Of a DNA stretch of 64,000 bases, positions 24,512-64,000 are shown in pieces. This stretch comes from Pristiophorus japonicus (Eukaryota): the NCBI RefSeq assembly GCF_044704955.1, contig NW_027252668.1, positions 2,852,001 to 2,916,000 on the forward strand, in the 5' to 3' direction. Made by a program: the position numbers and the translations under genes. Numbering within the stretch: position 1 is the stretch's first letter; every line of letters begins with the position of its first letter. The notes beneath the pieces were generated by a model. It did no database searches. It saw nothing but the letters and a program-made list of their open reading frames with translations, and was not told the origin of the DNA.

Positions 24512-25138
<627 letters not shown>

Positions 25139-25895: not shown

Positions 25896-26512
<617 letters not shown>

Positions 26513-27232: not shown

Positions 27233-27274
27233 GCAGCTCTTTCAGAGAGGTTGTGGGTGGCTCTTAAAAGAGCC
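27233..27274 (-). terminator. H2B 3' stem-loop and HDE
   Basis: Minus strand GGCTCTTTTAAGAGCC (27274-27259), ACCCA, then CTGAAAGAGCTG. Confidence 0.93.
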
Positions 27275-27314
27275 GTTGTGTTTGGGGTTTGATCTCTCAG
27301 GACAGCGGGCAGTC

Positions 27315-27692: not shown

Positions 27693-27739
27693 CGTCTCGT
27701 TCAGTCAGGCGCAGATTTGGGGAAATTCTGCTCCGAACC

Positions 27740-38860: not shown

Positions 38861-38861
38861 C

Positions 38862-39425: not shown

Positions 39426-39679
39426 AAGTATTCTCAGAAACTCCTGAGATCTGTAGATCCACCTCGCTGGCGAGATCATGAGACTGAACCATAACTCTGT
39501 CACTCTCTCCCCGGATAGGGACTGGAAAATCCAGGGGACAGAGCTCGTTTCAGCTGGAGTTGGCCCAAACAGGCTTCAGTGCTCTTTTCATGTCAGTAAT
39601 TACCGAACTTTCGAATTGGATGCCACAAATGACTGAGTCGCATGGAGCAGGAACTGCCCAGCTTCCATTCTCTACCTGA

Positions 39680-42600
39680 GTATCAATCCCAAACTAATCC
39701 CACTGCCCCGCTCTCTCCCCATAGCCCTGTAAAAATCCCAAACTAATCCCACTACCCCGCTCTCTCCCCATGGCCCTGTAAAAATCCCAAACTAATCCCA
39801 CTGCCCCGCTCTCTCCCCATAGACCTGTATCAATCCCCAAACTAATCCCACTGCCCCGCTCTCACCCCATAGCCCTGCATCAATCCCCAAACTAATCCCA
39901 CTGCCCCACTCTCTCCCCATAGACCTGTATCAATCCCCAAATTAATCCCACTGCCCCGCTCTCTCCCCATAGCCCTGTATCAATCCCCAAACTAATCCCA
40001 CTGCCCCACTCTCTCCCCATAGACCTGTATCAATCCCAAAACTAATCCCACTGCCCCGCGCTCTCCCCATAGCCCTGTATCAATCCCAAACAAATCCCAC
40101 TGCCCCGCTCTCTCCCCATAGCCCTGTATCAATCCCCAAACTAATCCCACTGCCCCACTCTCTCCCCATAGACCTGTATCAATCCCAAAACTAATCCCAC
40201 TGCCCCGCGCTCTCCCCATAGCCCTGTATCAATCCCAAACTAATCCCACTGCCCCGCTCTCTCCCCATAGCCCTGTATCAATCTCCAAACTAATCCCACT
40301 GCCCTCTCTCCCCATAGCACTGTATCAATGCCCAAACTAATCCCACTGCCCCGCTCTCTCCATAGCCCTGTATCAATGCTCAAACTAATCCCACTGCCCC
40401 GCTCTCGCTCCCCATAGCCCTGTATCAATCCCCAAACTAATCCCACTGCCCCGCTCTCTGGCCATAGCCCTGTATCAATCCACAAACTAATCCCACTGCA
40501 CCGCTCTCTCCCCATAGCCCTGTATCAATCCCAAACTAATCCCACTGCCCCGCTCTCTCCCCATAGCCCTGTAAGAATCCCAAACTAATTCCACTGACCC
40601 GCTCTCTCCACATAGCCCTGTATCAATCCACAAACTAATCCCACTGCCCCGCTCTCTCCCCATAGCCCTTTATCAATCCACAAACTAATGCCACTGCCCC
40701 GCTCTCTCCCCATAGCCCTGTACCAATCCCCAAACTAATCCCACTGCCTCGCTCTCTCCCCATAACCCTGTAACAATCCCAAACTAATCCCAATGCCCCG
40801 CTTTCTCCACATAGCCCTGTAAGAATCCCAAACTAATCCCACTGCCCCGCTCTCTCCCCATAGCCCTGTATCAATCCCCAAACTAATCCCACTGCCTGCT
40901 CTCTCTCCCCATACCCCTTTATCAATCCACAAACTAATGCGACTGCCCCGCTCTCTCCCCATAGCCCTGTATCAAACCCCAAAGTAATCCCACTCGCAGC
41001 GCTCTCCCCATACCCCTGCATCAATCCCCAAACAAATCCCATCGCCCTGTATCAATCCCTAAAATAATCCCAATGCCCCGCTCTTGCCCCAGAACCCTGC
41101 ATCAATCCCCAAATTAATCCTACTGCCCAGTCTCCCCATAGCCCTGTATCAATCCCCAAACTAATCCCGCTGCCCCGCTCTCTGCCCATAGCCCTGTATC
41201 AATCCACAAACTAATCCCACTGCCCCGCTCTCTCCCCATAGCCCTGTACCAATCCCAAACTAATCCCACTGCCCTCTCTCCCCATAGCCCTGTATCAATC
41301 CCCAAACTAATCCCACTGACCCGCTCTCGCTCCAGAGTCTTGTATCAATCTCCAAACTAATCCCACTGCCCCGCTCTCTCTCCCCATAGCCCTGTATCAA
41401 TCCCAAACTAATCCCACTGCCCAACTCTCTCCCCATAGCCCTGTATCAATCCCCAAATTAATCCCACTGCCCCGCTCTCTCCCCATAGCCCTGTAACAAT
41501 CCCAAACTAATCCCACTGCCCTCTCTCCCCATAGCCCTGTATCAATCCCCAAACTAATCCCACTGCTCCGCTCTCTCCCCATAGCCCTCTATCAACCCCC
41601 AAACTAATCCCACTGACCCGCTCTCTCTCCATAGCTCTGTATCAATCCCAATCTAATTCCACTGCCCCGCTCTCTCCCCATAGCGCTGTATCAATCTCCA
41701 AAAAACACCCACTGCCCCGCTCTCTCTCCCCTAAGACCTGGATCAATCCCAAACTAATCCCACTGCCCCACTCTCTCCCCATACCTCTGTATCAATCCCC
41801 AAACTAATCCCACTGCCCTGTCTCCCCATAGCCCTGTATCAATCCCCAAACGAATCCCACTGCCCCGCTCTCTACCCATACCCCTGGATCAATCCACAAA
41901 CTAATCCCACTGCCCCGCTCTCTCCCCATAGCCCTGTAAGAATCCCAAACTAATCCCACTGCACCGCTCTCTCCCCATAGCCCTGTATCAATCCACAAAC
42001 TAATCCCACTGCCCCGCTCTCTCCCCATAGCCCTGTATCAATCCCAAACTAATCCCACTGCCCCGCTCTCTCCCCATAGCCCTGTAAGAATCCCAAACTA
42101 ATCCCACTGTCCCGCTCTCTGCCCATAGCCCTGTATCAATCCCCAAATTAATCCCACTGCCCCGCTCTCTCCCCATAGCCCTGTATCAATCACAAACTAA
42201 TCCTACTGCCCCGCTCTCTCCCCATAGCCCTGTAAGAATCCAAAACTAATCCCACTGACCCGCTCTCTCCCCACAGCCCTGTATCAATCACAAACTAATC
42301 CTACTGCCCCGCTCTCTCCCCATAGCCCTGTAAGAATCCCAAACTAATTCCACTGCCCCGCTCTCTCCCCATAGCCCTGGAAGAATCCCAAACTAATTCC
42401 ACTGACCCGCTCTCTCCCCATAGCCCTGTATCAATCCACAAACTAATCCCACTGCCCCGCTCTCTCCCCCATAGCCCTGTATCAATCCACAAACTAATTC
42501 CACTGCCCCGCTCTCTCCCCATAGCCATGTAAGAATCCCAAACTAATTCCACTGACCCGCTCTCTCCACATAGCCCTGTATCAATCCACAAACTAATCCC

Positions 42601-45600
42601 ACTGCCCCGCTCTCTCCCCATAGCCCTTTATCAATCCACAAACTAATGCCAATGCCCCGCTCTCTCCCCATAGCCCTGTACCAATCCCCAAACTAATCCC
42701 ACTGCCCCGCTCTCTCCCCATAGCCCTGTAACAATCCCCAAACTAATCCCACTGCCCCGCTCTCTCCCCATAGCCCTGTATCAATCCCCAAACTAATCCC
42801 ACTGCCCCGCTCTCTCCCCATAGCCCTGTAAGAATCCCAAACTAATTCCACTGACCAGCTCTCTCCACATAGCCCTGTATCAATCCCCAAACTAATCCCA
42901 CTGCCCTGCTCTCTCTCCCCATAGCCCTTTATCAATCCACAAACTAATGCCACTGCCCCGCTCTCTCCCCATAGCCCTGTATCAATCCCCAAAGTAATCC
43001 CACTCCCAGCGCTCTCCCCATACCCCAATCCCCAAACGAATCCCATCGCCCTGTATCAATCCCGAAAATAATCCCAATGCCCCGCTCTCGCCCCAGAGCC
43101 CTGTATCAATCCCCAAATTAATCCTACTGCCCAGTCTCCCCATAGCCCTGTATCAATCCCCAAACTAATCCCGCTGCCCCGCTCTCTGCCCATAGCCCTG
43201 TATCAATCCACAAACTAATCCCACTGCCCCGCTCTCTCCCCACAGCCCTGTAACAATCCCAAACTAATCCCACTGCCCTCTCTCCCCATAGCCCTGTATC
43301 AATCCCCAAACTAATCCCACTGCCCCGCTCTCTCTCCATAGCCCTGTATCAATCCCAATCTAATTCCACTGCCCCGCTCTCCCGCCATAGCCCTGTAACG
43401 ATCCCAAACTAATCCCAATGCCCCGATCTCTCCCCATAGCCCTGTATCAATCCCAAACTAATCCCACTGGCCCGCTCTCTCCCCATAGCCCTGTATCAGT
43501 CCCAAACTAATCCCACTGCCACACTCTCTCCCCATAGCCCTGTATCAATCCCCAAACTAATCCCACTGCCCTGTCTCCCCATAGCCCTGTATCAATCCCA
43601 AAACTAATCCCACTGCCCCGCTCTCTCCCCATACCTCTGTATAAATCCACAAACTAATCCCACTGCCCCGCTCTCTCCCCACAGCCCTGTAAAAATCCCA
43701 AACTAATCCCACTGCCCCGCTCTCTCCCCATAGCACTGTATCAATCCCCAAACTAATCCCACTGCCCCACTCTCTCCCCATAGACCTGTATCAATCCCCA
43801 AACTAATCCCACTGCCCCGCTCTCTCCCCATAGCCCTGTATCAATCCCCAAACTAATCCCACTGCCCCACTATCTCCCCATAGCCCTGTATCAATCCCAA
43901 ACAAATCCCACTGCCCCGCTCTCTCTCCATAGCCCTGTATCAATCCCAATCTAATTCCACTGCCCCGCTCTCCCGCCATAGCCCTGTAACGATCCCAAAC
44001 TAATCCCAATGCCCCGATCTCTCCCCATAGCCCTGTATCAATCCCAAACTAATCCCACTGCCCCACTCTCTCTCTCCCCATAGACCTGTATCAATCCCCA
44101 AACTAATCCCACTGCCCCGCGCTCTCCCCAGAGCCCTGCATCAATCCCAAACTAATCCCCCTGCCCCGCTCTCTCCCCATAGCCCTGTATCAATACCAAA
44201 CTAATCCCACTGCCCCGCTCTCTCCCCATAGCCCTGTATCAATCCCCAAACTAATCCCACTGCCCCACTCTCTCCCCATAGACCTGTATCAATCCCCAAA
44301 CTAATCCCACTGCCCCGCGCTCTCCCCATAGCCCTGTATCAATCCCCAAACTAACCTCACTGCCCCGCTCTATCCCCATACTAATCCCACTGCCCCGCTC
44401 TCTCCCCACAGCCCTGTATCAATCCCAAACTAATCCCACTGCCCCGCTCTCTCCCCATAGCCCTGTATCAATCTCCAAACTAATCCCACTGCCCTCTCTC
44501 CCCATAGCACTGTATCAATCCCAAACTAATCCCACTGCCTCGCTCTCTCCCCATAGCCCTGTAACAATCCCAAACTAATCCCACTGTCCTCTCTCCCCAT
44601 AGCCCTGTATGAATCCCCAAACTAATCCCACTGCCCCGCTATCTCCCCATAGCCCTGTTTCAATCTCCAAACTAAACCCACTGCCCCGCTCTCTCTCCCC
44701 AAAGCACTGCATCAATCCCAAACTAATCCCACTGCCCCACTCTCTCCCCATACCCCTGTATCAATCCCCAAACTAATACCACTGCCCTGTCTCCCCATAG
44801 CACTGTATCAATCCCCAAACTAATCCCACTGCCCCGCTCTCTCCCCATACCATTGTATCAATCCACAAACTAATCCCACTGCCCCGCTCTCTCCCCATAG
44901 CCCTGTAAGAATCCCAAACTAATCCCTCTCCCAGCGCTCTCCCCATACCCCTGTATCAATCCCCAAACGAATCCCATCGCCCTGCATCAATCCCTAAAAT
45001 AATCCCAATGCCCCGCTCTCGCCCCAGAGCCCTGTATCAATCCCCAAATTTATCCTACTGCCCAGTCTCCCCATAGCCCTGTATCAATCCCCAAACTAAT
45101 CCCGCTGCCCCGCTCTCTGCCCATAGCCCTGTATCAATCCACAAACTAATCCCACTGCCCCGCTCTCTCCCCATAGCCCTGTAACAATCCCAAACTAATC
45201 CCACTGCCCTCTCTCCCCATAGCCCTGTATCAATCCCCAAACTAATCCCACTGCCCCGCTCTCGCTCCAGAGCCCTGTATCAATCTCCAAACTAATCCCA
45301 CTGCCAGCTCTCTCTCCCCATAGCCCTGTATCAATCCCAAACTAATCCCACTGCCCAACTCTCTCCCCATAGCCCTGTATCAATCCCCAAACTAATCCCA
45401 CTGCCCCGCTCTCTCCCCATAGCCCTGTAACAATCCCAAACGAATCCCACTGCCCTCTCTCCCCATAGCCCTGTATCAATCCCCAAACTAATCCCACTGC
45501 TCCGCTCTCCCGCCATAGACCTGTAACGATCCCAAACTAATCCCACTGCCCCGATCTCTCCCCATAGCCCTGTATCAATCCCAAACTAATCCCACTGGCC

Positions 45601-48600
45601 CGCTCTCTCCCCATAGCCGTGTATCAGTCCCAAACTAATCCCACTGCCCCACACTCTCCCCATAGCCCTGTATCAATCCCCAAACTAATCCCATTGCCCT
45701 GTCTCCCCATAGCCCTGTATCAATCCCAAAACTAATCCCACTGCCCCGCTCTCTCCCCATACCCCTGTATAAATCCCCAAACTAATCCCAGTGCCCCGCT
45801 CTCTCCGCATAGCCCTGTATCTATCCCCAAACTAATCCCACTTCCCCGCTATCACCCCATAGCCCTGTAACAATCCCCAAACTAATCCCACTGCCCTGTC
45901 TTCCCACAGCCCTGTATCAATCCCCAAACTAATCCCACAGCCCCGCTCTCTCCCCATACCCGTGTATCAATCTACAAACTAATCCCACTGCCCCGCTCTC
46001 TCCCGATAGCCCTGTAACAATCCCAAACTAATCCCACTGCCCTGCTCTCTCCCCATAGCCCTGTACCAATCTCCAAACTAATCCCACTGCCCCGCTCTCT
46101 CCCCATAGCCCTGTAACAATCCCAAACTAATCCCACTGCCCCGCTCGCTCTCCCCATAGCCCTGCATCAATCCCCAAACTAATCACACTGCACTCTCTTC
46201 CCATAGCCCTGTATCAATCACCAAACTAATCCCACTGCCCTCTCTCCCCATAGCCCTGTATCAATCCCCAAACTAATCACACTACCCTCTCTCCCCATAG
46301 CCCTGTATCAATCACCAAACTAATCCCACTGCCCTCTCTCCCCATAGCCATGTATCAATCCCAATCTAATTCCACTGCCCCGCTCTCCCGCCATAGCCCT
46401 GTAACGATCCCAAAGTAATCCCACTTCCCCGCTCTCTCCCCATAGCCCTGTAATAATCCCAAACTAATCCCACTGGCCCGCTCTCTCCCCATAGCCCTGT
46501 ATCAATCCCAAACTAATCCCACTGCCCCACTCTCTCCCCATAGCCCTGTATCAATCCCCAAACTAATCCCACTGCCCTGTCTCCCTATAGCCCTGTATCA
46601 ATCCCCAAACGAATCCCACTGGCCCGCTCTCTCCCCATAGCCCTGTAACAATCCCAAACTAATCCCACTGTCCTTCTCTCTATCCATAGCTCTATATCAA
46701 TCTCAAACCAATCCCACTTCCACAGACTCTCCCGCCATAGCCCTGTATCAATCCCAAACTAATCCCACTGCCCCGCTCTCTCCCCATAGCCCTGTAACAA
46801 TCCCAAACTAATCCCACTGTCCTTCTCTCTCTCCACAGCTCTATATCAATCTCAAACCAATCCCACTTCCACACTCTCTCCCCATAGCCCTGTATCAATC
46901 CCCAAACTAATCACACTACCCTCTCTCCCCATAGCCCTGTATCAATCCCCAAACTAATCCCACTGCCCCGCTCTCTCCCCAGAGACCTGTATCAATCCCG
47001 AAACTAATCCCACTGCCCCGCTCTCTCCCCAGAGCCCTGTATCAATCACGAAACTAATCCCACTGCCGCACTCTCTCCCCATAGCCCTGTACCAATCCCA
47101 AACTAATCTCACTGCCCCGCTCTCTACCCGTAGCCCTGTATCAATCCCCAAACTAATCCCACTGCCCCGCGCTCTCCCCAGAGCCCTGTATCAATTCCGA
47201 AACTAATCCCACTGCCCCGCTCTCTCCCCATAGCCCTGTACCAATCCCAAACTAATCCCACTGCCCCGCTCTCAACCCGTAGCCCTGTATCAATCCCCAA
47301 ACTAATCCCACTGCCCTGTCTCCCCATAGCACTGTATCAATCCCCAAACTAATCCCACTGCCCCGCTCTCTCCCCATAGCCGTGTAACAATCCCAAACTA
47401 ATTCCACTGCCCTGCTCTCTCCCCATAGCCTGTAACAAACCCAAACTAATCCCACTGTCCTTCTCTCTCTCCATAGCCCTATATCAATCACAAACCAATC
47501 CCACTTCCCCACTCGCTCCTCATACCCCTGTATCAATCCCCAAACTAATCCCACTGCCCCGCTCTCTCCCCATAGCCCTGTATCAATCCCCAAACTAATT
47601 CCACTGCCCCGCTCTCTCCCCATAGCCCTGTAACAATCCCAAACTAATCCCACTGCCCCGCTCTCTCCCCATAGCCCTGTAACAATCCCAAACTAATCAC
47701 ACTGCCCCGCTTTCTCCCCATAGCCCTGTAAGAATCCCAAACTAATCCGACTGCCCCACTCTCTCCCCATAGTCCTGTATCAATCCCCAAACTAATCCCA
47801 CTGCCCCGATCTCCCCCCATCGCCCTGTATCAATGCACAAACTACTCCCACTGCCCCGCTCTCTCCCCATAGCCCTGTATCAATCCCAAACTAATCCCAC
47901 TGCCTCGCTCTCTCCCCATAGCCCTGTAACAATCCCAAACTAATCCCTCTGTACTCTCTCCCCATAGCCCTGTATCAATCTCCAAACTAATCCCACTGCC
48001 CCGCTCTCTCCCCAGAGCCCTGTATCAATCCCCAAACTAATCCCACTGCCCCGCTCTCTCCCCAGAGCCCTGTATCAATCCCCAAACTAATCCCACTGCC
48101 CCGCTCTCTCCCCATAGCCCTGTAAAAATCCCAAACTAATCCCACTGCCCCGCTTTCTCCCCATAGCCCTGTAAGAATCCCAAACTAATCCCACTGCCCC
48201 GCTCTCTCCCCATAGCCCTGTATCAATCCCAAACCAATCCCACTGCCCCGCACTCTCCCCATAACCCTGTATCAATCCCCAAACTAATCCCACTGCCCCA
48301 CTCTCTCCCCATAGCCCTGTATCAATCCCCAAACTAATCCCACTGCCCCGCTCTCTCCCCATAGCCCTGTAGCAATCCCAAACTAATCCCACTGCCCCGC
48401 TCTCTACCCATAGCCCTGTATCAATCCCCAAAGTCATCCCACTCCCAGCGCTCTCCCCGTAGCCCTGTATCAATCCCCAAACGAATCCCATCGCCCTGTA
48501 TCAATCCCTAAAATAATCCCACTGCCCCGCTCTCGCCCCAGAGCCCTGTATCAATCCCCAAACTAATCCTACTTCCCAGTCTCCCCATAGTCCTGTATCA

Positions 48601-51600
48601 ATCCCCAAACTAATCCCGCTGACCCGCTCTCTGCCCATAGCCCTGTATCAATCCACAAACTAATCCCACTGCCCCGCTCTCTCCCCATAGCCCTGTAACA
48701 ATCCCAAACTAATCCCACTGCCCTCTCTCCCCATAGCCCTGTATCAATCCCCAAACTAATCCCACTGTCCCGCTCTCGCCCCAGAGCCCTGCATCCATCT
48801 CCAAACTAATCCCACTGCCCCGCTCTCTCTCCCCATAGCCCTGTATCAATCCCCAAACTAATACGACTGCCCCGCTCTCTCCCCATAGCCTTGTAACAAT
48901 CCCAAACTAATCCCACTGCCCCGCTCTCTCCCCATAGCCCTGTATCAATCCCAAACTAATCCCACTGCCCCACTCTCTCCCCATAGCCCTGTAACAATCC
49001 CAAACTAATCCCACTGTCCTTCTCTCCCCATAGCCCTGTATCAATCACCAAACTAATCCCACTGCCCTCTCTCCCCATAGCACTGTATCAATCCCCAAAC
49101 TAATCCCACTGCCCCGCTCTCTCCCCATAGCCCTGTAACAATCCCAAACTAATCCCACTGTCCTTCTCTCTCTCCATAGCCCTGTAACAATCCACAAACT
49201 AATCTCACTGACCCGCTCTCTCCCCATAGCCCTGTATCAATCCCAATCTAATTCCACTGCCCCGCTCTCCCGCCATAGCCCTGTAACGATCCCAAACTAA
49301 TCCCACTTCCCCGCTCTCTCCCCATAGCCCTGTAACAATCCCAAACGAATCCCACTGCCCCACTCTCTCCCCATAGCCCTGTATCAATCCCCAAACTAAT
49401 CCCACTGCCCTGTCTCCCCATAGCCCTGTATGAATCCCAAACTAATCCCACAGCCCCGCTCTCTCCCCATAGCCCTGTAACAATCCCAAACTAATCCCAC
49501 TGTCCTTCTCTCTCTCCATAGCTCTATATCAATCTCAAACCAATCCCACTTCCACACTCTCTCCCCATAGCCCTGTATCAATCCCCAAACTAATCACACT
49601 ACCCTCTCTCCCCATAGCCCTGTATCAATCCCCAAACTAATCCCACTGCCCCGCTCTCTCCCCATAGCCCTGTAGCAATCCCAAACTAATCCCACTGCCC
49701 CGCTCTCTCCCCATAGCCCTGTATCAATCCCCAAACTAATCCCACTGCCGTCTCTCCTCATAGCCCTGTAGCAATCCCAAACTAATCCCACTGCCCCGCT
49801 CTCTCCCCATAGCCCTGTATCAATCCCCAAACTAATCCCACTGCCCCACTCTCTCCCCATAGACCTGTATCAATCCCAAAACTAATCCCACTGCCCCGCG
49901 CTCTCCCCATAGCCCTGTATCAATCCCAAACTAATCCCACTGCCCCGCTCTCTCCCCATAGCCCTGTATCAATCTCCAAACTAATCCCACTGCCCTCTCT
50001 CCCCATAGCACTGTATCAATGCCCAAACTAATCCCACTGCCCCGCTCTCTCCATAGCCCTGTATCAATGCTCAAACTAATCCCACTGCCCCGCTCTCGCT
50101 CCCCATAGCCCTGTATCAATCCCCAAACTAATCCCACTGCCCCGCTCTCTGGCCATAGCCCTGTATCAATCCACAAACTAATCCCACTGCACCGCTCTCT
50201 CCCCATAGCCCTGTATCAATCCCAAACTAATCCCACTGCCCCGCTCTCTCCCCATAGCCCTGTAAGAATCCCAAACTAATTCCACTGACCCGCTCTCTCC
50301 ACATAGCCCTGTATCAATCCACAAACTAATCCCACTGCCCCGCTCTCTCCCCATAGCCCTTTATCAATCCACAAACTAATGCCACTGCCCCGCTCTCTCC
50401 CCATAGCCCTGTACCAATCCCCAAACTAATCCCACTGCCTCGCTCTCTCCCCATAACCCTGTAACAATCCCAAACTAATCCCAATGCCCCGCTTTCTCCA
50501 CATAGCCCTGTAAGAATCCCAAACTAATCCCACTGCCCCGCTCTCTCCCCATAGCCCTGTATCAATCCCCAAACTAATCCCACTGCCTGCTCTCTCTCCC
50601 CATACCCCTTTATCAATCCACAAACTAATGCGACTGCCCCGCTCTCTCCCCATAGCCCTGTATCAAACCCCAAAGTAATCCCACTCGCAGCGCTCTCCCC
50701 ATACCCCTGCATCAATCCCCAAACAAATCCCATCGCCCTGTATCAATCCCTAAAATAATCCCAATGCCCCGCTCTTGCCCCAGAACCCTGCATCAATCCC
50801 CAAATTAATCCTACTGCCCAGTCTCCCCATAGCCCTGTATCAATCCCCAAACTAATCCCGCTGCCCCGCTCTCTGCCCATAGCCCTGTATCAATCCACAA
50901 ACTAATCCCACTGCCCCGCTCTCTCCCCATAGCCCTGTACCAATCCCAAACTAATCCCACTGCCCTCTCTCCCCATAGCCCTGTATCAATCCCCAAACTA
51001 ATCCCACTGACCCGCTCTCGCTCCAGAGTCTTGTATCAATCTCCAAACTAATCCCACTGCCCCGCTCTCTCTCCCCATAGCCCTGTATCAATCCCAAACT
51101 AATCCCACTGCCCAACTCTCTCCCCATAGCCCTGTATCAATCCCCAAATTAATCCCACTGCCCCGCTCTCTCCCCATAGCCCTGTAACAATCCCAAACTA
51201 ATCCCACTGCCCTCTCTCCCCATAGCCCTGTATCAATCCCCAAACTAATCCCACTGCTCCGCTCTCTCCCCATAGCCCTCTATCAATCCCCAAACTAATC
51301 CCACTGACCCGCTCTCTCTCCATAGCTCTGTATCAATCCCAATCTAATTCCACTGCCCCGCTCTCTCCCCATAGCGCTGTATCAATCTCCAAAAAACACC
51401 CACTGCCCCGCTCTCTCTCCCCTAAGACCTGGATCAATCCCAAACTAATCCCACTGCCCCACTCTCTCCCCATACCTCTGTATCAATCCCCAAACTAATC
51501 CCACTGCCCTGTCTCCCCATAGCCCTGTATCAATCCCCAAACGAATCCCACTGCCCCGCTCTCTACCCATACCCCTGGATCAATCCACAAACTAATCCCA

Positions 51601-54600
51601 CTGCCCCGCTCTCTCCCCATAGCCCTGTAAGAATCCCAAACTAATCCCACTGCACCGCTCTCTCCCCATAGCCCTGTATCAATCCACAAACTAATCCCAC
51701 TGCCCCGCTCTCTCCCCATAGCCCTGTATCAATCCCAAACTAATCCCACTGCCCCGCTCTCTCCCCATAGCCCTGTAAGAATCCCAAACTAATCCCACTG
51801 TCCCGCTCTCTGCCCATAGCCCTGTATCAATCCCCAAATTAATCCCACTGCCCCGCTCTCTCCCCATAGCCCTGTATCAATCACAAACTAATCCTACTGC
51901 CCCGCTCTCTCCCCATAGCCCTGTAAGAATCCAAAACTAATCCCACTGACCCGCTCTCTCCCCACAGCCCTGTATCAATCACAAACTAATCCTACTGCCC
52001 CGCTCTCTCCCCATAGCCCTGTAAGAATCCCAAACTAATTCCACTGCCCCGCTCTCTCCCCATAGCCCTGGAAGAATCCCAAACTAATTCCACTGACCCG
52101 CTCTCTCCCCATAGCCCTGTATCAATCCACAAACTAATCCCACTGCCCCGCTCTCTCCCCCATAGCCCTGTATCAATCCACAAACTAATTCCACTGCCCC
52201 GCTCTCTCCCCATAGCCATGTAAGAATCCCAAACTAATTCCACTGACCCGCTCTCTCCACATAGCCCTGTATCAATCCACAAACTAATCCCACTGCCCCG
52301 CTCTCTCCCCATAGCCCTTTATCAATCCACAAACTAATGCCAATGCCCCGCTCTCTCCCCATAGCCCTGTACCAATCCCCAAACTAATCCCACTGCCCCG
52401 CTCTCTCCCCATAGCCCTGTAACAATCCCCAAACTAATCCCACTGCCCCGCTCTCTCCCCATAGCCCTGTATCAATCCCCAAACTAATCCCACTGCCCCG
52501 CTCTCTCCCCATAGCCCTGTAAGAATCCCAAACTAATTCCACTGACCAGCTCTCTCCACATAGCCCTGTATCAATCCCCAAACTAATCCCACTGCCCTGC
52601 TCTCTCTCCCCATAGCCCTTTATCAATCCACAAACTAATGCCACTGCCCCGCTCTCTCCCCATAGCCCTGTATCAATCCCCAAAGTAATCCCACTCCCAG
52701 CGCTCTCCCCATACCCCAATCCCCAAACGAATCCCATCGCCCTGTATCAATCCCGAAAATAATCCCAATGCCCCGCTCTCGCCCCAGAGCCCTGTATCAA
52801 TCCCCAAATTAATCCTACTGCCCAGTCTCCCCATAGCCCTGTATCAATCCCCAAACTAATCCCGCTGCCCCGCTCTCTGCCCATAGCCCTGTATCAATCC
52901 ACAAACTAATCCCACTGCCCCGCTCTCTCCCCACAGCCCTGTAACAATCCCAAACTAATCCCACTGCCCTCTCTCCCCATAGCCCTGTATCAATCCCCAA
53001 ACTAATCCCACTGCCCCGCTCTCTCTCCATAGCCCTGTATCAATCCCAATCTAATTCCACTGCCCCGCTCTCCCGCCATAGCCCTGTAACGATCCCAAAC
53101 TAATCCCAATGCCCCGATCTCTCCCCATAGCCCTGTATCAATCCCAAACTAATCCCACTGGCCCGCTCTCTCCCCATAGCCCTGTATCAGTCCCAAACTA
53201 ATCCCACTGCCACACTCTCTCCCCATAGCCCTGTATCAATCCCCAAACTAATCCCACTGCCCTGTCTCCCCATAGCCCTGTATCAATCCCAAAACTAATC
53301 CCACTGCCCCGCTCTCTCCCCATACCTCTGTATAAATCCACAAACTAATCCCACTGCCCCGCTCTCTCCCCACAGCCCTGTAAAAATCCCAAACTAATCC
53401 CACTGCCCCGCTCTCTCCCCATAGCACTGTATCAATCCCCAAACTAATCCCACTGCCCCACTCTCTCCCCATAGACCTGTATCAATCCCCAAACTAATCC
53501 CACTGCCCCGCTCTCTCCCCATAGCCCTGTATCAATCCCCAAACTAATCCCACTGCCCCACTATCTCCCCATAGCCCTGTATCAATCCCAAACAAATCCC
53601 ACTGCCCCGCTCTCTCTCCATAGCCCTGTATCAATCCCAATCTAATTCCACTGCCCCGCTCTCCCGCCATAGCCCTGTAACGATCCCAAACTAATCCCAA
53701 TGCCCCGATCTCTCCCCATAGCCCTGTATCAATCCCAAACTAATCCCACTGCCCCACTCTCTCTCTCCCCATAGACCTGTATCAATCCCCAAACTAATCC
53801 CACTGCCCCGCGCTCTCCCCAGAGCCCTGCATCAATCCCAAACTAATCCCCCTGCCCCGCTCTCTCCCCATAGCCCTGTATCAATACCAAACTAATCCCA
53901 CTGCCCCGCTCTCTCCCCATAGCCCTGTATCAATCCCCAAACTAATCCCACTGCCCCACTCTCTCCCCATAGACCTGTATCAATCCCCAAACTAATCCCA
54001 CTGCCCCGCGCTCTCCCCATAGCCCTGTATCAATCCCCAAACTAACCTCACTGCCCCGCTCTATCCCCATACTAATCCCACTGCCCCGCTCTCTCCCCAC
54101 AGCCCTGTATCAATCCCAAACTAATCCCACTGCCCCGCTCTCTCCCCATAGCCCTGTATCAATCTCCAAACTAATCCCACTGCCCTCTCTCCCCATAGCA
54201 CTGTATCAATCCCAAACTAATCCCACTGCCTCGCTCTCTCCCCATAGCCCTGTAACAATCCCAAACTAATCCCACTGTCCTCTCTCCCCATAGCCCTGTA
54301 TGAATCCCCAAACTAATCCCACTGCCCCGCTATCTCCCCATAGCCCTGTTTCAATCTCCAAACTAAACCCACTGCCCCGCTCTCTCTCCCCAAAGCACTG
54401 CATCAATCCCAAACTAATCCCACTGCCCCACTCTCTCCCCATACCCCTGTATCAATCCCCAAACTAATACCACTGCCCTGTCTCCCCATAGCACTGTATC
54501 AATCCCCAAACTAATCCCACTGCCCCGCTCTCTCCCCATACCATTGTATCAATCCACAAACTAATCCCACTGCCCCGCTCTCTCCCCATAGCCCTGTAAG

Positions 54601-57600
54601 AATCCCAAACTAATCCCTCTCCCAGCGCTCTCCCCATACCCCTGTATCAATCCCCAAACGAATCCCATCGCCCTGCATCAATCCCTAAAATAATCCCAAT
54701 GCCCCGCTCTCGCCCCAGAGCCCTGTATCAATCCCCAAATTTATCCTACTGCCCAGTCTCCCCATAGCCCTGTATCAATCCCCAAACTAATCCCGCTGCC
54801 CCGCTCTCTGCCCATAGCCCTGTATCAATCCACAAACTAATCCCACTGCCCCGCTCTCTCCCCATAGCCCTGTAACAATCCCAAACTAATCCCACTGCCC
54901 TCTCTCCCCATAGCCCTGTATCAATCCCCAAACTAATCCCACTGCCCCGCTCTCGCTCCAGAGCCCTGTATCAATCTCCAAACTAATCCCACTGCCAGCT
55001 CTCTCTCCCCATAGCCCTGTATCAATCCCAAACTAATCCCACTGCCCAACTCTCTCCCCATAGCCCTGTATCAATCCCCAAACTAATCCCACTGCCCCGC
55101 TCTCTCCCCATAGCCCTGTAACAATCCCAAACGAATCCCACTGCCCTCTCTCCCCATAGCCCTGTATCAATCCCCAAACTAATCCCACTGCTCCGCTCTC
55201 CCGCCATAGACCTGTAACGATCCCAAACTAATCCCACTGCCCCGATCTCTCCCCATAGCCCTGTATCAATCCCAAACTAATCCCACTGGCCCGCTCTCTC
55301 CCCATAGCCGTGTATCAGTCCCAAACTAATCCCACTGCCCCACACTCTCCCCATAGCCCTGTATCAATCCCCAAACTAATCCCATTGCCCTGTCTCCCCA
55401 TAGCCCTGTATCAATCCCAAAACTAATCCCACTGCCCCGCTCTCTCCCCATACCCCTGTATAAATCCCCAAACTAATCCCAGTGCCCCGCTCTCTCCGCA
55501 TAGCCCTGTATCTATCCCCAAACTAATCCCACTTCCCCGCTATCACCCCATAGCCCTGTAACAATCCCCAAACTAATCCCACTGCCCTGTCTTCCCACAG
55601 CCCTGTATCAATCCCCAAACTAATCCCACAGCCCCGCTCTCTCCCCATACCCGTGTATCAATCTACAAACTAATCCCACTGCCCCGCTCTCTCCCGATAG
55701 CCCTGTAACAATCCCAAACTAATCCCACTGCCCTGCTCTCTCCCCATAGCCCTGTACCAATCTCCAAACTAATCCCACTGCCCCGCTCTCTCCCCATAGC
55801 CCTGTAACAATCCCAAACTAATCCCACTGCCCCGCTCGCTCTCCCCATAGCCCTGCATCAATCCCCAAACTAATCACACTGCACTCTCTTCCCATAGCCC
55901 TGTATCAATCACCAAACTAATCCCACTGCCCTCTCTCCCCATAGCCCTGTATCAATCCCCAAACTAATCACACTACCCTCTCTCCCCATAGCCCTGTATC
56001 AATCACCAAACTAATCCCACTGCCCTCTCTCCCCATAGCCATGTATCAATCCCAATCTAATTCCACTGCCCCGCTCTCCCGCCATAGCCCTGTAACGATC
56101 CCAAAGTAATCCCACTTCCCCGCTCTCTCCCCATAGCCCTGTAATAATCCCAAACTAATCCCACTGGCCCGCTCTCTCCCCATAGCCCTGTATCAATCCC
56201 AAACTAATCCCACTGCCCCACTCTCTCCCCATAGCCCTGTATCAATCCCCAAACTAATCCCACTGCCCTGTCTCCCTATAGCCCTGTATCAATCCCCAAA
56301 CGAATCCCACTGGCCCGCTCTCTCCCCATAGCCCTGTAACAATCCCAAACTAATCCCACTGTCCTTCTCTCTATCCATAGCTCTATATCAATCTCAAACC
56401 AATCCCACTTCCACAGACTCTCCCGCCATAGCCCTGTATCAATCCCAAACTAATCCCACTGCCCCGCTCTCTCCCCATAGCCCTGTAACAATCCCAAACT
56501 AATCCCACTGTCCTTCTCTCTCTCCACAGCTCTATATCAATCTCAAACCAATCCCACTTCCACACTCTCTCCCCATAGCCCTGTATCAATCCCCAAACTA
56601 ATCACACTACCCTCTCTCCCCATAGCCCTGTATCAATCCCCAAACTAATCCCACTGCCCCGCTCTCTCCCCAGAGACCTGTATCAATCCCGAAACTAATC
56701 CCACTGCCCCGCTCTCTCCCCAGAGCCCTGTATCAATCACGAAACTAATCCCACTGCCGCACTCTCTCCCCATAGCCCTGTACCAATCCCAAACTAATCT
56801 CACTGCCCCGCTCTCTACCCGTAGCCCTGTATCAATCCCCAAACTAATCCCACTGCCCCGCGCTCTCCCCAGAGCCCTGTATCAATTCCGAAACTAATCC
56901 CACTGCCCCGCTCTCTCCCCATAGCCCTGTACCAATCCCAAACTAATCCCACTGCCCCGCTCTCAACCCGTAGCCCTGTATCAATCCCCAAACTAATCCC
57001 ACTGCCCTGTCTCCCCATAGCACTGTATCAATCCCCAAACTAATCCCACTGCCCCGCTCTCTCCCCATAGCCGTGTAACAATCCCAAACTAATTCCACTG
57101 CCCTGCTCTCTCCCCATAGCCTGTAACAAACCCAAACTAATCCCACTGTCCTTCTCTCTCTCCATAGCCCTATATCAATCACAAACCAATCCCACTTCCC
57201 CACTCGCTCCTCATACCCCTGTATCAATCCCCAAACTAATCCCACTGCCCCGCTCTCTCCCCATAGCCCTGTATCAATCCCCAAACTAATTCCACTGCCC
57301 CGCTCTCTCCCCATAGCCCTGTAACAATCCCAAACTAATCCCACTGCCCCGCTCTCTCCCCATAGCCCTGTAACAATCCCAAACTAATCACACTGCCCCG
57401 CTTTCTCCCCATAGCCCTGTAAGAATCCCAAACTAATCCGACTGCCCCACTCTCTCCCCATAGTCCTGTATCAATCCCCAAACTAATCCCACTGCCCCGA
57501 TCTCCCCCCATCGCCCTGTATCAATGCACAAACTACTCCCACTGCCCCGCTCTCTCCCCATAGCCCTGTATCAATCCCAAACTAATCCCACTGCCTCGCT

Positions 57601-60600
57601 CTCTCCCCATAGCCCTGTAACAATCCCAAACTAATCCCTCTGTACTCTCTCCCCATAGCCCTGTATCAATCTCCAAACTAATCCCACTGCCCCGCTCTCT
57701 CCCCAGAGCCCTGTATCAATCCCCAAACTAATCCCACTGCCCCGCTCTCTCCCCAGAGCCCTGTATCAATCCCCAAACTAATCCCACTGCCCCGCTCTCT
57801 CCCCATAGCCCTGTAAAAATCCCAAACTAATCCCACTGCCCCGCTTTCTCCCCATAGCCCTGTAAGAATCCCAAACTAATCCCACTGCCCCGCTCTCTCC
57901 CCATAGCCCTGTATCAATCCCAAACCAATCCCACTGCCCCGCACTCTCCCCATAACCCTGTATCAATCCCCAAACTAATCCCACTGCCCCACTCTCTCCC
58001 CATAGCCCTGTATCAATCCCCAAACTAATCCCACTGCCCCGCTCTCTCCCCATAGCCCTGTAGCAATCCCAAACTAATCCCACTGCCCCGCTCTCTACCC
58101 ATAGCCCTGTATCAATCCCCAAAGTCATCCCACTCCCAGCGCTCTCCCCGTAGCCCTGTATCAATCCCCAAACGAATCCCATCGCCCTGTATCAATCCCT
58201 AAAATAATCCCACTGCCCCGCTCTCGCCCCAGAGCCCTGTATCAATCCCCAAACTAATCCTACTTCCCAGTCTCCCCATAGTCCTGTATCAATCCCCAAA
58301 CTAATCCCGCTGACCCGCTCTCTGCCCATAGCCCTGTATCAATCCACAAACTAATCCCACTGCCCCGCTCTCTCCCCATAGCCCTGTAACAATCCCAAAC
58401 TAATCCCACTGCCCTCTCTCCCCATAGCCCTGTATCAATCCCCAAACTAATCCCACTGTCCCGCTCTCGCCCCAGAGCCCTGCATCCATCTCCAAACTAA
58501 TCCCACTGCCCCGCTCTCTCTCCCCATAGCCCTGTATCAATCCCCAAACTAATACGACTGCCCCGCTCTCTCCCCATAGCCTTGTAACAATCCCAAACTA
58601 ATCCCACTGCCCCGCTCTCTCCCCATAGCCCTGTATCAATCCCAAACTAATCCCACTGCCCCACTCTCTCCCCATAGCCCTGTAACAATCCCAAACTAAT
58701 CCCACTGTCCTTCTCTCCCCATAGCCCTGTATCAATCACCAAACTAATCCCACTGCCCTCTCTCCCCATAGCACTGTATCAATCCCCAAACTAATCCCAC
58801 TGCCCCGCTCTCTCCCCATAGCCCTGTAACAATCCCAAACTAATCCCACTGTCCTTCTCTCTCTCCATAGCCCTGTAACAATCCACAAACTAATCTCACT
58901 GACCCGCTCTCTCCCCATAGCCCTGTATCAATCCCAATCTAATTCCACTGCCCCGCTCTCCCGCCATAGCCCTGTAACGATCCCAAACTAATCCCACTTC
59001 CCCGCTCTCTCCCCATAGCCCTGTAACAATCCCAAACGAATCCCACTGCCCCACTCTCTCCCCATAGCCCTGTATCAATCCCCAAACTAATCCCACTGCC
59101 CTGTCTCCCCATAGCCCTGTATGAATCCCAAACTAATCCCACAGCCCCGCTCTCTCCCCATAGCCCTGTAACAATCCCAAACTAATCCCACTGTCCTTCT
59201 CTCTCTCCATAGCTCTATATCAATCTCAAACCAATCCCACTTCCACACTCTCTCCCCATAGCCCTGTATCAATCCCCAAACTAATCACACTACCCTCTCT
59301 CCCCATAGCCCTGTATCAATCCCCAAACTAATCCCACTGCCCCGCTCTCTCCCCATAGCCCTGTAGCAATCCCAAACTAATCCCACTGCCCCGCTCTCTC
59401 CCCATAGCCCTGTATCAATCCCCAAACTAATCCCACTGCCGTCTCTCCTCATAGCACTGTATCAATCCCCAAACGAATCCCACTGCCCCGCTATCACCCC
59501 ATAGCCCTGTAACAATGCCAAACTAATTCCACTGACCCGCTCTCTCCCCATAGCCCTGTAAGAATCCCAAACTAATTCCATTGACCCGCTCTCTCCACAT
59601 AGCCCTGTATCAATCCCCAAACTAATCCCACTGCCCTGCTCTCTCTCCTCATAGCCCTTTATCAATCCACAAACTAATGGCACTGCCCCGCTCTCTCCCC
59701 ATAGCCCTGTATCAATCCCCAAAGTAATCCCACTCCCAGCGCTCTCCCCATACCCCAATCCCCAAACGAATCCCATCGCCCTGTATCAATCCCGAAAATA
59801 ATCCCAATGCCCCGCTCTCGCCCCAGAGCCCTGTATCAATCCCCAAATTAATCCTACTGCCCAGTCTCCCCATAGCCCTGTATCAATCCCCAAACTAATC
59901 CCGCTGCCCCGCTCTCTGCCCATAGCCCTGTATCAATCCACAAACTAATCCCACTGCCCCGCTCTCTCCCCACAGCCCTGTAACAATCCCAAACTAATCC
60001 CACTGCCCTCTCTCCCCATAGCCCTGTATCAATCCCCAAACTAATCCCACTGCCCCGCTCTCTCTCCATAGCCCTGTATCAATCCCAATCTAATTCCACT
60101 GCCCCGCTCTCCCGCCATAGCCCTGTAACGATCCCAAACTAATCCCAATGCCCCGATCTCTCCCCATAGCCCTGTATCAATCCCAAACTAATCCCACTGG
60201 CCCGCTCTCTCCCCATAGCCCTGTTTCAGTCCCAAACTAATCCCACTGCCACACTCTCTCCCCATAGCCCTGTATCAATCCCCAAACTAATCCCACTGCC
60301 CTGTCTCCCCATAGCCCTGTATCAATCCCAAAACTAATCCCACTGCCCCGCTCTCTCCCCATACCTCTGTATAAATCCACAAACTAATCCCACTGCCCCG
60401 CTCTCTCCCCACAGCCCTGTAAAAATCCCAAACTAATCCCACTGCCCCGCTCTCTCCCCATAGCACTGTATCAATCCCCAAACTAATCCCACTGCCCCAC
60501 TCTCTCCCCATAGACCTGTATCAATCCCCAAACTAATCCCACTGCCCCGCTCTCTCCCCATAGCCCTGTATCAATCCCAAACTAATCCCACTGCCCCACT

Positions 60601-63600
60601 CTCTCCCCATAGCCCTGTAACAATCCCAAACTAATCCCACTGTCCTTCTCTCCCCATAGCCCTGTATCAATCACCAAACTAATTCCACTGCCCTCTCTCC
60701 CCATAGCACTGTATCAATCCCCAAACTAATCCCACTGCCCCGCTCTCTCCCCATAGCCCTGTAACAATCCCAAACTAATCCCACTGTCCTTCTCTCTCTC
60801 CATAGCCCTGTAACAATCCACAAACTAATCTCACTGACCCGCTCTCTCCCCATAGCCCTGTATCAATCCCAATCTAATTCCACTGCCCCGCTCTCCCGCC
60901 ATAGCCCTGTAACGATCCCAAACTAATCCCACTTCCCCGCTCTCTCCCCATAGCCCTGTAACAATCCCAAACGAATCCCACTGCCCCACTCTCTCCCCAT
61001 AGCCCTGTATCAATCCCCAAACTAATCCCACTGCCCTGTCTCCCCATAGCCCTGTATGAATCCCAAACTAATCCCACAGCCCCGCTCTCTCCCCATAGCC
61101 CTGTAACAATCCCAAACTAATCCCACTGTCCTTCTCTCTCTCCATAGCTCTATATCAATCTCAAACCAATCCCACTTCCACACTCTCTCCCCATAGCCCT
61201 GTATCAATCCCCAAACTAATCACACTACCCTCTCTCCCCATAGCCCTGTATCAATCCCCAAACTAATCCCACTGCCCCGCTCTCTCCCCATAGCCCTGTA
61301 GCAATCCCAAACTAATCCCACTGCCCCGCTCTCTCCCCATAGCCCTGTATCAATCCCCAAACTAATCCCACTGCCGTCTCTCCTCATAGCACTGTATCAA
61401 TCCCCAAACGAATCCCACTGCCCCGCTATCACCCCATAGCCCTGTAACAATGCCAAACTAATTCCACTGACCCGCTCTCTCCCCATAGCCCTGTAAGAAT
61501 CCCAAACTAATTCCATTGACCCGCTCTCTCCACATAGCCCTGTATCAATCCCCAAACTAATCCCACTGCCCTGCTCTCTCTCCTCATAGCCCTTTATCAA
61601 TCCACAAACTAATGGCACTGCCCCGCTCTCTCCCCATAGCCCTGTATCAATCCCCAAAGTAATCCCACTCCCAGCGCTCTCCCCATACCCCAATCCCCAA
61701 ACGAATCCCATCGCCCTGTATCAATCCCGAAAATAATCCCAATGCCCCGCTCTCGCCCCAGAGCCCTGTATCAATCCCCAAATTAATCCTACTGCCCAGT
61801 CTCCCCATAGCCCTGTATCAATCCCCAAACTAATCCCGCTGCCCCGCTCTCTGCCCATAGCCCTGTATCAATCCACAAACTAATCCCACTGCCCCGCTCT
61901 CTCCCCACAGCCCTGTAACAATCCCAAACTAATCCCACTGCCCTCTCTCCCCATAGCCCTGTATCAATCCCCAAACTAATCCCACTGCCCCGCTCTCTCT
62001 CCATAGCCCTGTATCAATCCCAATCTAATTCCACTGCCCCGCTCTCCCGCCATAGCCCTGTAACGATCCCAAACTAATCCCAATGCCCCGATCTCTCCCC
62101 ATAGCCCTGTATCAATCCCAAACTAATCCCACTGGCCCGCTCTCTCCCCATAGCCCTGTTTCAGTCCCAAACTAATCCCACTGCCACACTCTCTCCCCAT
62201 AGCCCTGTATCAATCCCCAAACTAATCCCACTGCCCTGTCTCCCCATAGCCCTGTATCAATCCCAAAACTAATCCCACTGCCCCGCTCTCTCCCCATACC
62301 TCTGTATAAATCCACAAACTAATCCCACTGCCCCGCTCTCTCCCCACAGCCCTGTAAAAATCCCAAACTAATCCCACTGCCCCGCTCTCTCCCCATAGCA
62401 CTGTATCAATCCCCAAACTAATCCCACTGCCCCACTCTCTCCCCATAGACCTGTATCAATCCCCAAACTAATCCCACTGCCCCGCTCTCTCCCCATAGCC
62501 CTGTATCAATCCCCAAACTAATCCCACTGCCCCACTATCTCCCCATAGCCCTGTATCAATCCCAAACAAATCCCACTGCCCCGCTCTCTCCCCATCGCCC
62601 TGTATCAATCCCCAAACTAATCCCACTGCCCCACTCTCTCTCTCCCCATAGACCTGTATCAATCCCCAAACTAATCCCACTGCCCCGCGCTCTCCCCAGA
62701 GCCCTGCATCAATCCCAAACTAATCCCCCTGCCCCGCTCTCTCCCCATAGCCCTGTATCAATACCAAACTAATCCCACTGCCCCGCTCTCTCCCCATAGC
62801 CCTGTATCAATCCCCAAACTAATCCCACTGCCCCACTCTCTCCCCATAGACCTGTATCAATCCCCAAACTAATCCCACTGCCCCGCGCTCTCCCCATAGC
62901 CCTGTATCAATCCCAAACAAATCCCACTGCCCCGCTCTCTCCCCATAGCCCTGTATCAATCCCCAAACTAACCTCACTGCCCCGCTCTATCCCCATACTA
63001 ATCCCACTGCCCCGCTCTCTCCCCACAGCCCTGTATCAATCCCAAACTAATCCCACTGCCCCGCTCTCTCCCCATAGCCCTGTATCAATCTCCAAACTAA
63101 TCCCACTGCCCTCTCTCCCCATAGCACTGTATCAATCCCAAACTAATCCCACTGCCTCGCTCTCTCCCCATAGCCCTGTAACAATCCCAAACTAATCCCA
63201 CTGTCCTCTCTCCCCATAGCCCTGTATGAATCCCCAAACTAATCCCACTGCCCCGCTATCTCCCCATAGCCCTGTTTCAATCTCCAAACTAAACCCACTG
63301 CCCCGCTCTCTCTCCCCAAAGCACTGGATCAATCCCAAACTAATCCCACTGCCCCATTCTCTCCCCATACCCCTGTATCAATCCCCAAACTAATACCACT
63401 GCCCTGTCTCCCCATAGCACTGTATCAATCCCCAAACTAATCCCACTGCCCCGCTCTCTCCCCATACCATTGTATCAATCCACAAACTAATCCCACTGCC
63501 CCGCTCTCTCCCCATAGCCCTGTAAGAATCCCAAACTAATCCCTCTCCCAGCGCTCTCCCCATACCCCTGTATCAATCCCCAAACGAATCCCATCGCCCT

Positions 63601-64000
63601 GCATCAATCCCTAAAATAATCCCAATGCCCCGCTCTCTCCCCATAGCCCTGTAACAATCCCAAACTAATCCCACTGCCCTCTCTCCCCATAGCCCTGTAT
63701 CAATCCCCAAACTAATCCCACTGCCCCGCTCTCGCTCCAGAGCCCTGTATCAATCTCCAAACTAATCTCACTGCCCGCTCTCTCTCCCCATAGCCCTGTA
63801 TCAATCCCAAACTAATCCCACTGCCCAACTCTCTCCCCATAGCCCTGTATCAATCCCCAAACTAATCCCACTGCCCCGCTCTCTCCCCATAGCCCTGTAA
63901 CAATCCCAAACTAATCCCACTGCCCTCTCTCCCCATAGCCCTGTATCAATCCCCAAACTAATCCCACTGCTCCGCTCTCCCGCCATAGACCTGTAACGAT
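39680..64000 (-). repeat. ~50-bp satellite (SatB), more than 24 kb, with higher-order structure; continues past the window end
   Basis: Plus-strand monomer AAACTAATCCCACTGCCCCGCTCTCTCCCCATAGCCCTGTATCAATCCCC (47-51 bp variants); ORF track repeats at offsets 9,691 and 1,935. Confidence 0.98.

Follow-up and report, generated by a model that had tools for sequence, protein, structure and literature searches.

A satellite derived from the ORF2 stop/3' UTR boundary of an old CR1-type LINE subfamily

The window analysed here, a stretch of 64,000 nucleotides of Pristiophorus japonicus DNA, ends in a tandem array of short units that had been predicted to be a slice of a CR1 element amplified about 500 times. 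This raises the question of which element supplied the unit, and how the unit came to be multiplied with so little decay. The features of the window that bear on this question are as follows:

39680..64000, minus strand (the CR1 sense): tandem array of 49/50-bp units, detected by TRF and wraparound alignment
42779..42828, minus strand: monomer matching the 50-bp array consensus exactly (1 of 21 such)
40093..49765, no strand assigned: first of two tandem copies of a 9,691-bp block within the array
49784..59456, no strand assigned: second copy of the 9,691-bp block
58592..62514, no strand assigned: 1,935-bp tandem duplication within the array (copy 1: 58592-60579)
39420..39679, no strand assigned: flank at the 3' end of the array (in CR1 sense), without the parent 3' UTR
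38859..39420, plus strand: decayed CR1 3' fragment of another subfamily, oriented opposite to the array

The window array and its parent element

The array of about 500 units proved to be real. TRF reported a period of 50 with 478.5 copies at 39680-63593 and a further 8.3 copies at 63590-63995, and wraparound alignment yielded 502 segments, partial ends included (190 of 50 bp and 175 of 49 bp), with a mean identity to the consensus of 0.914. The original prediction gave the array a size of 24 kb. While it indeed fills 39680-64000, this is the opening 24.3 kb of a 70.8-kb array that continues for 46 kb past the window and ends at G000:C2056:2962436. Within the window, 9.7 kb of the array is a near-perfect duplicate with 1 mismatch between 40680 and 49680; this 9,691-bp duplication may represent a very recent event or an assembly artefact.

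The minus-strand monomer does read LIQGYGERAGQWD*, and the other CR1 ends that had been quoted from the window are real. The ungapped match of the monomer to 39326-39369 was reproduced (34/44, score 38), but this is in itself a modest score: when 200 dinucleotide shuffles were run against the 39.7 kb of the window outside the array, they scored 25.5 on average (sd 2.7), and 1 of them attained 38. The four matches to the monomer that rank next within the window were also identified, by reading, as CR1 ORF2 ends. The adjacent CR1 fragment had been regarded as a relative of the array and not as its seed. This view holds, as the fragment matches the parent described below at 69.5% over 433 aligned bases and lies on the opposite strand, which rules it out as the seed. 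The flank at 39420..39679 was single-copy in a genome search, and no parent CR1 anchor was found at either end of the 70.8-kb array.

The parent subfamily is absent from the 64-kb window. Cut in CR1 phase, the unit comprises the 12 last ORF2 codons, the stop codon and 10 nt of the 3' UTR. It matches a consensus from 22 single-unit copies in 47 of 51 columns with a score of 80, as opposed to 19.3 +/- 2.9 and a maximum of 37 for shuffled controls (n=1000), so that the predicted similarity to a CR1 subfamily beyond shuffled sequence was observed over the whole unit. Against 30 independent single-unit copies, for which the search pattern itself fixed 8 of the 49 unit positions, 47/49 bases match. 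One mismatch, at unit position 24, is a decayed CpG (CA in 13, TG in 7 and CG in 4 of the 30 copies), and the other, T43G, is derived in the array unit. In the single-unit copies (64 matches) the ORF frame continues through the unit to the stop and then into the 3' UTR without any junction, which indicates that the direction was from element to satellite. The parent 3' UTR of ~85 nt ends in CTATG-like repeats. The C-terminus is identical in 73/129 aa to an intact Exo_endo_phos + RVT_1 frame in L062. In L123, L136 and the array host L086, collinear matches extend into the RT domain, while recovery of the parent did not reach its endonuclease end. On the basis of its C-terminal motifs and tail, we take the parent to be a CR1 element. 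Altogether, these comparisons indicate that the satellite derives from the ORF2 stop/3' UTR boundary of an old CR1-type LINE subfamily, as had been proposed. The window array, a head-to-tail array extending over kilobases whose unit is homologous to the element beyond chance, is a TE-derived satellite.

Arrays inside CR1 copies and the decay of their units

Beyond what had been predicted, the satellite is a genome-wide family with one common junction and with units that are far less decayed than their hosts. The original prediction proposed to look for CR1 copies that carry a small number of tandem units at the stop of ORF2, and such copies were found at many loci. The 23 CR1 hosts examined carry from 2 to ~55 units in register behind the ORF2 anchor (2 in L078 and L091, then 3, 4, 7, 9-15, 20, 31-39 and ~55), and in 16 of them the 3' UTR is also present behind the units. 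In having arrays within element copies and in register, the satellite resembles the Ogre/PisTR-A type. A single junction, with 1 bp of microhomology only, was present at every locus examined, and the first unit carries G43 in 11/11 junction-bearing matches versus 0/64 single-unit matches (the latter counted by reading). The shared junction and G43 together point to a single origin.

The host 5' ends are variable (16 to over 350 bp), and the host flanks are unrelated with the exception of L109/L112 and the C20 cluster. Pairwise, anchors differ by 28.5% among hosts and by 28.0% between hosts and single-unit copies. No diagnostic anchor mutation common to the array hosts was found, and the hosts form no clade. 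In 9 of 20 sampled arrays there was no anchor above the threshold, and some of these lie beside GA-rich sequence. For L079, no contig of runs X5, X6 and X15 bridges flank and array; one X6 contig spans unique flank sequence, differing at 37 of about 257 letters, and is possibly orthologous.

Divergence from the consensus was 16.9% in array hosts and 17.0% in single-unit copies. By contrast, the unit segment diverges from the ancestral sequence by 22% in single-unit copies and by 5.4% in inner array units, and across arrays with at least three units the divergence is ~5%. The two dimers, L078 and L091, are decayed as much as their hosts (23.7% and 17.7%), and both sit at unlinked interior sites. 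Locus-majority changes were absent from 19 of 21 arrays and numbered 0-1 in each of seven large arrays, whereas a decay of 12-22% would predict less than 1% of loci without any fixed change. No young source subfamily was found among the 64 exact-pattern single-unit matches, and the 30 that were fetched average 22% divergence in the unit. A CR1 or SINE subfamily with the same 3' end and a young age (about 5%) would make a freeze of the units unnecessary, but none was seen among these 64 matches. Array length was not significantly related to purity (Spearman rho -0.23, p-value of 0.29). With regard to GC-biased conversion, arrays had an S>W to W>S ratio of 1.7 and single-unit copies one of 2.6, from counts that are not independent. 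It should be noted that the unit divergence of L108 (13%) is too high owing to alignment across an inserted CR1, and that L108 was excluded from the pooled spectra.

Origin and turnover of the arrays

The reading that we prefer, with a probability of roughly 0.57, is that many loci were seeded by a CR1 master carrying an internal duplication that did it no harm, and that turnover favouring perfect units froze the consensus. First, a 49-bp segment from the 12th-last ORF2 codon to 10 nt into the 3' UTR evidently became tandemly duplicated. The duplication would have begun in an active CR1 master, in which ORF2 would be spared because the stop codon is located in the first unit. With ORF2 and the 3' tail both intact, retrotransposition could have scattered multi-unit seeds. 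These would make up a few per cent of the subfamily copies, and T43G probably appeared early in the multi-unit lineage. Seeds stuck at two units would then have decayed like the remaining element, while others, mostly near chromosome ends, would have undergone continued turnover through conversion or misaligned exchange. In this process perfect units would be copied preferentially and mutated units shed, freezing the consensus at the ancestral sequence. Lastly, a few arrays, the window array among them, may have reached 10-70 kb and lost their CR1 flanks via later insertions, deletions or movement. The array is most likely selfish, neutral DNA.

The dimers are as decayed as their hosts, which indicates that the seeds are old and favours transposition of a multi-unit form. 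L079 and L165, however, end in T43 units that follow fresh G43 units, and the two units of L078 are T43/T43; this would require two successive masters or later inter-locus exchange. The lack of a diagnostic anchor mutation or a clade among the hosts argues against a separate master, which could show these features but need not. The lack of a relation between array length and purity, the missing parent anchors of the window array and the anchored matches far from chromosome ends also speak against the preferred reading.

A possible, though distinctly less probable, alternative is that one duplication gave rise to a satellite pool, from which arrays were written into resident CR1 copies by homology. 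Homology-directed repair, interlocus conversion or reinsertion of circles could serve as routes, with single-unit copies or old multimers as targets and the host's own unit as the homology. It is tentatively conceivable, then, that the satellite recolonises dead copies of its own parent, with thousands of decayed CR1 3' ends as landing pads; if so, a daughter satellite would keep and redistribute the ancestral sequence of an extinct element across species. The hosts indeed look randomly drawn from the old subfamily, but decay in their units is four times lower, and old T43 units persist in L079 and L165 where the fresh G43 arrays end on the 3' side. Moreover, unit positions 35-42 are more decayed in last units (11/96) than in inner units (47/2231), the 50-bp form occurs in 17/21 arrays on different contigs, and the arrays without an above-threshold anchor may move as DNA. 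A precedent is provided, in the passage cited, by Rsp-like insertion into 1.688 clusters (PMC7403614). However, the seven large arrays share no derived haplotypes in excess of shuffles (0.151 vs 0.158 for pairs, 0.007 vs 0.013 for triples), the same-junction dimers equal their hosts in age, and the sharing of the unit across organism codes suggests that youth alone does not account for its low divergence. In addition, homologous repair is expected to work poorly on a stretch of 49 bp with about 80% identity.

It is highly improbable that an intrinsically unstable segment was duplicated independently in many CR1s, for example via a G-quadruplex motif. At positions 6-34, the CpG-restored unit does contain the sole canonical four-tract G4 motif of the reconstructed 3' region, and a fifth G3 tract is created by T43G. 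However, the motif is also found in two other CR1 ends of the window, and G4Hunter scores are 1.72 within the unit versus 1.56 outside. The G-tract Gs of the arrays are no better conserved than other Gs (223/4092 vs 66/1576), and selection on the motif is not supported. The many arrays without locus-specific fixed changes also speak against recurrence, and the shared junction and G43 largely exclude it.

Spread of a founder locus among subtelomeres by segmental duplication, with the CR1 flanks carried along, is very unlikely as well: such duplication occurs locally (L051-L054 on C20 and C4224 have common anchors, and L109 and L112 are 81% alike), but the anchors of the 153 host pairs differ as much as those of unrelated single-unit copies, collinear similarity mostly ends at the CR1 5' end, and most of the 23 anchored loci have unrelated flanks.

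Known satellites and genomic distribution

No published report of this particular CR1-derived satellite was found in the literature; the comparisons below relate to the passages cited from each source. In chicken, the HinfI (SCR1) and Cen2/3/4/7/11 repeats are described as CR1-derived satellites, and the entry for HinfI lists the CR1 3' UTR together with part of ORF2 (PMC9659126, PMC6947457). They share this origin with the present satellite, but their CR1 piece is described as lying inside a larger monomer, whereas here the entire 49-bp unit is CR1 and a graded series is retained inside dispersed parent copies. The closest match to the seeding by a CR1 master is provided by pea PisTR-A, which arose from tandem repeats in the Ogre 3' UTR, and by Drosophila DINE/Helitron elements with their central tandem repeats (PMC9659126). 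As described there, both combine short arrays in dispersed element copies with large free arrays. Their parents are an LTR element and a Helitron instead of a LINE, and the present satellite further differs in that the unit overlaps the coding end, most copies are single-unit and the host subfamily decayed long ago. In maize, CRM1TR and CRM4TR are likewise reported to be tandem repeats wholly derived from retrotransposons, with growth by conversion proposed (PMC3648361), but they are presented as having few loci and locus-specific variants, unlike the many loci and single near-ancestral consensus seen here. Drosophila Rsp-like repeats spread into 1.688 clusters via homology, by interlocus conversion or circles (PMC7403614). 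They are the template for a recolonisation driven by homology to resident sequence, except that their landing sites, as described, are another satellite and not decayed copies of the satellite's own parent. Finally, 'frozen' satellites such as FA-SAT are reported to have a consensus conserved across taxa (PMC5714208), as does the present satellite. In contrast to FA-SAT as described there, the present arrays lie next to the ancestral sequence and to the host element, which serves as a neutral yardstick, and the freeze is measurable per locus.

Most element-derived satellites have been inferred from resemblance alone; here, the parent and the precise breakpoint occur in one genome alongside dimers that have decayed, short arrays with anchors and a 70-kb array. 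Because each anchored array is flanked by a neutral CR1 clock, locus-by-locus tests are possible with related genomes. This makes it testable how the consensus stays frozen, and whether arrays stem from inherited seeds or from inter-locus exchange. Divergence from the consensus would underestimate the age of the satellite about fourfold.

Pure arrays concentrate close to chromosome ends, and 6 of the 10 chromosome-scale anchored matches lie far from them. The pattern on C1-C3, one of many small near-terminal arrays, does not suggest a centromeric role. Neither the small word shares in the metatranscriptomes X16-X20 nor the guess that X15 is RNA counts as evidence of transcription. The unit was found in sequencing runs under four organism codes, with at least half of the sampled 31-mers present in runs under three of the codes and a share of 0.27 under the fourth; summed contig depths do not equal copy numbers. 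The 50-bp variant was present in all four runs examined.

Parent element of the satellite unit

The minus strand of the array unit translates as LIQGYGERAGQWD*, and the original prediction regarded the satellite as an amplified slice of the end of CR1 ORF2. The parent was approached through L001, the sole locus matched by a pattern combining a conserved motif of ORF2 with unit sequence; there a CR1 end passes into nine or ten units without a shift of register. The 140 bp upstream in L001, used as query, gave 40 matches, 30 of which were fetched; after seven array- or dimer-bearing loci and one duplicate had been dropped, a parent consensus was obtained from 22 copies. This consensus translates into an ORF2 C-terminus that finishes in the unit's peptide, and it contains the unit over its full length (47 of 51 columns match, with a score of 80; 1000 shuffles gave 19.3 +/- 2.9, maximum 37), which shows that the prediction was correct. 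The 129 C-terminal amino acids of the parent are 57% identical to the intact frame of the CR1 inserted in the array, and collinear homology extends to the RT domain in three loci.

The unit takes in the last 12 codons of ORF2 with their stop codon, plus the first 10 nt of the UTR; the unit-to-unit junction, GGATTG/ATAC, has 1 bp of microhomology. Compared with an independent set of 30 of the 64 single-unit matches (CR1 copies with one unit, or singles), it agreed at 47 of 49 positions, 8 of which are fixed by the search pattern. Position 24 in these singles is a decayed CpG (CA 13, TG 7, CG 4). Since this explains the other mismatch, the change from T in singles to G in array units at position 43 (T43G) is, judged from these alignments, the sole derived base of the unit.

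The previously noted 34/44 match of the monomer to the nearby CR1 was reproduced with a score of 38. This score was reached by 1 of 200 shuffles, and the evidence from the window by itself for a CR1 origin is therefore modest. The view that this adjacent CR1 is not the direct seed was borne out: over 433 aligned bases, its identity to the real parent is 69.5%.

The array in and beyond the window

The genome assembly amounts to 5.9 Gb in 4,318 contigs, and the contig in question, C2056, measures 21.7 Mb. The window occupies positions 2852001-2916000 on it, and features of the genome's CR1 and SINE sequences make a cartilaginous fish the probable source. TRF reported a 50-bp period; 478.5 copies fill 39680-63593, and a further 8.3 extend to 63995. 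Wraparound alignment gave 502 segments, most commonly of 50 bp (190) or 49 bp (175), with a mean identity of 0.914, gaps counted. The full array spans 70.8 kb (~1,370 units) with its far end at C2056:2962436, and no parent sequence is retained at either end. The flank at 39420-39679 is single-copy in the genome. A 9,691-bp array block is present twice, the copies differing by 1 mismatch between 40680 and 49680, which reflects either a very recent duplication or an assembly artefact. The array is split by a younger element:

C2056:2917205-2920307 (L062:1159-4194), younger CR1 whose endonuclease and RT frame of 1,011 aa is intact

This copy is 95-97% identical to the CR1 copies of the window, and its subfamily is a recently active one. 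About 1 kb past the far end of the array lies another G-rich tandem repeat of ~56 bp (L066:7350-7600), possibly element-derived too. The window also contains the following features:

21795-22487, plus strand, H1 histone gene (Pfam)
23574-23894, plus strand, putative H4 histone gene
within 24635-25138, minus strand, putative H3 histone gene
25896-26462, minus strand, putative H2A histone gene
27315-27704, minus strand, putative H2B histone gene
960-8121, 12073-15139 and 29116-36527, several related 40/41-bp satellites
1773, 3752, 4913, 6252 and 34646, 5'-truncated young CR1 start joined to the 41-bp satellite (five occurrences)

We take 21795-27704 to be a histone gene cluster, with H1 supported by Pfam and H4, H3, H2A and H2B as putative members. 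The fusion of the same truncated CR1 start to the satellite five times suggests a compound unit that was duplicated.

CR1 copies carrying tandem units

CR1 copies with few tandem units at the ORF2 stop, proposed earlier as something to look for, were found at many loci. A pattern leading from the array into the UTR matched 7 loci, and one leading from the anchor (parent ORF2 sequence upstream of the array) into the junction matched 11; at similar stringency there were 64 single-unit matches, and reversed-pattern controls gave 0. G43 was present in the first unit of 11/11 junction matches versus 0/64 singles. An exact 46-mer listed 21 array loci on contigs C1-C3, and 11 of the 20 fetched retain the 5' anchor (score of at least 58) or the 3' UTR (score of at least 44), the respective background, which includes real CR1s, scoring 26 and 21 at the 95th percentile and 74 and 40 at the 99th. 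The 23 analysed hosts with a 5' anchor bear 2 to ~55 units, and 16 of them also have the UTR. The 46-mer occurs 9,741 times in the genome, which, corrected for how often it is found in the sampled arrays, corresponds to an estimated ~85,000-160,000 units, or 4-8 Mb.

Several loci show particular arrangements. L089 and L090 (C17:128.87 Mb) are anchored arrays of 7 and 15 units that face each other in opposite orientation, less than 2 kb apart. Short deletions immediately after the last unit removed the UTR start in L087, L088, L090 and L093. At L022, L097 and L107, arrays without anchor adjoin GA- or G-rich simple sequence that resembles a stretch of the unit, the kind of trace expected from microhomology capture.

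On C1-C3, 20 of the 21 array loci, versus 0 of 31 singles, are no more than 16 Mb from a contig end, a threshold set post hoc. As these loci were picked by the exact 46-mer, the clustering concerns pure arrays; among anchor-selected chromosome-scale matches, only 4 of 10 lie within 10 Mb of an end. Raised GC and distinct repeat content have been described for shark chromosome ends (bioRxiv 10.1101/2022.10.17.512540).

Age and origin of the arrays

Anchors diverge from their consensus by 16.9% in array hosts (22 of 23 used) and 17.0% in singles (27 of 30 used), with pairwise differences of 28.5% between hosts, 27.4% between singles and 28.0% in mixed pairs. No diagnostic site separates host from single anchors except one imposed by the search pattern. 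The unit segment has diverged by 22% in singles, whereas in arrays the figure is 5.4% for inner units, 6.7% for the first unit and 6.5% for the last; the two dimers show 23.7% and 17.7%. No majority change was found in 19 of the 21 arrays with at least three units, and seven large arrays show 4-6% divergence with 0-1 majority changes. Furthermore, of 111 sampled 31-mers, sequencing runs under organism codes A, B and C contain at least half (0.27 for D), and all of the four runs examined show the unit in tandem along with the 50-bp variant. Together, the old anchors, low unit divergence, few majority changes and presence across organisms make the satellite consensus appear frozen at its ancestral state. 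The G8A variant, which does not rank among the leading variants in the window's array, reaches 23-89% in five large arrays on different contigs (L155, L156, L159, L161 and L162).

We favour, at a probability of roughly 0.57, a master CR1 that carried the unit duplication at no cost to ORF2 or the 3' tail, with turnover at each locus then favouring perfect units. This view is supported by the old dimers, by the lack of excess haplotype sharing between large arrays and by the conservation across organisms. It is less probable that arrays were written by homology into resident CR1 copies. That explanation is supported by the findings that array hosts make up no clade, that the fresh G43 arrays of L079 and L165 still end, on their 3' side, in old T43 units, and that the 50-bp form occurs in 17 of 21 arrays. 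Both routes may have acted. Recurrent independent duplication is largely excluded by the common junction and G43, and spread via segmental duplication by the unrelated anchors.

The unit contains a canonical G4 motif. As two further CR1 ends in the window also have one, and the G tracts of the unit are no better conserved, the motif could at most be a possible trigger.

The satellite is undescribed in the literature searched, and it may already be catalogued elsewhere, for example in Dfam or Repbase. The main text of a 2026 vertebrate CR1-group survey (PMC13343379) does not contain 'satellite' or 'tandem', and PMC3747384 names HER1 for sharks and rays but gives no sequence of it. In the present satellite the intermediates form an unusually complete series, and the apparently frozen consensus is open to measurement. 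CR1-derived satellites are on record in chicken, and arrays expanded within elements are represented by pea Ogre and Drosophila DINEs (PMC9659126, PMC6947457). Parallels in mechanism are provided by maize CRM1TR (PMC3648361) and Drosophila Rsp-like (PMC7403614).
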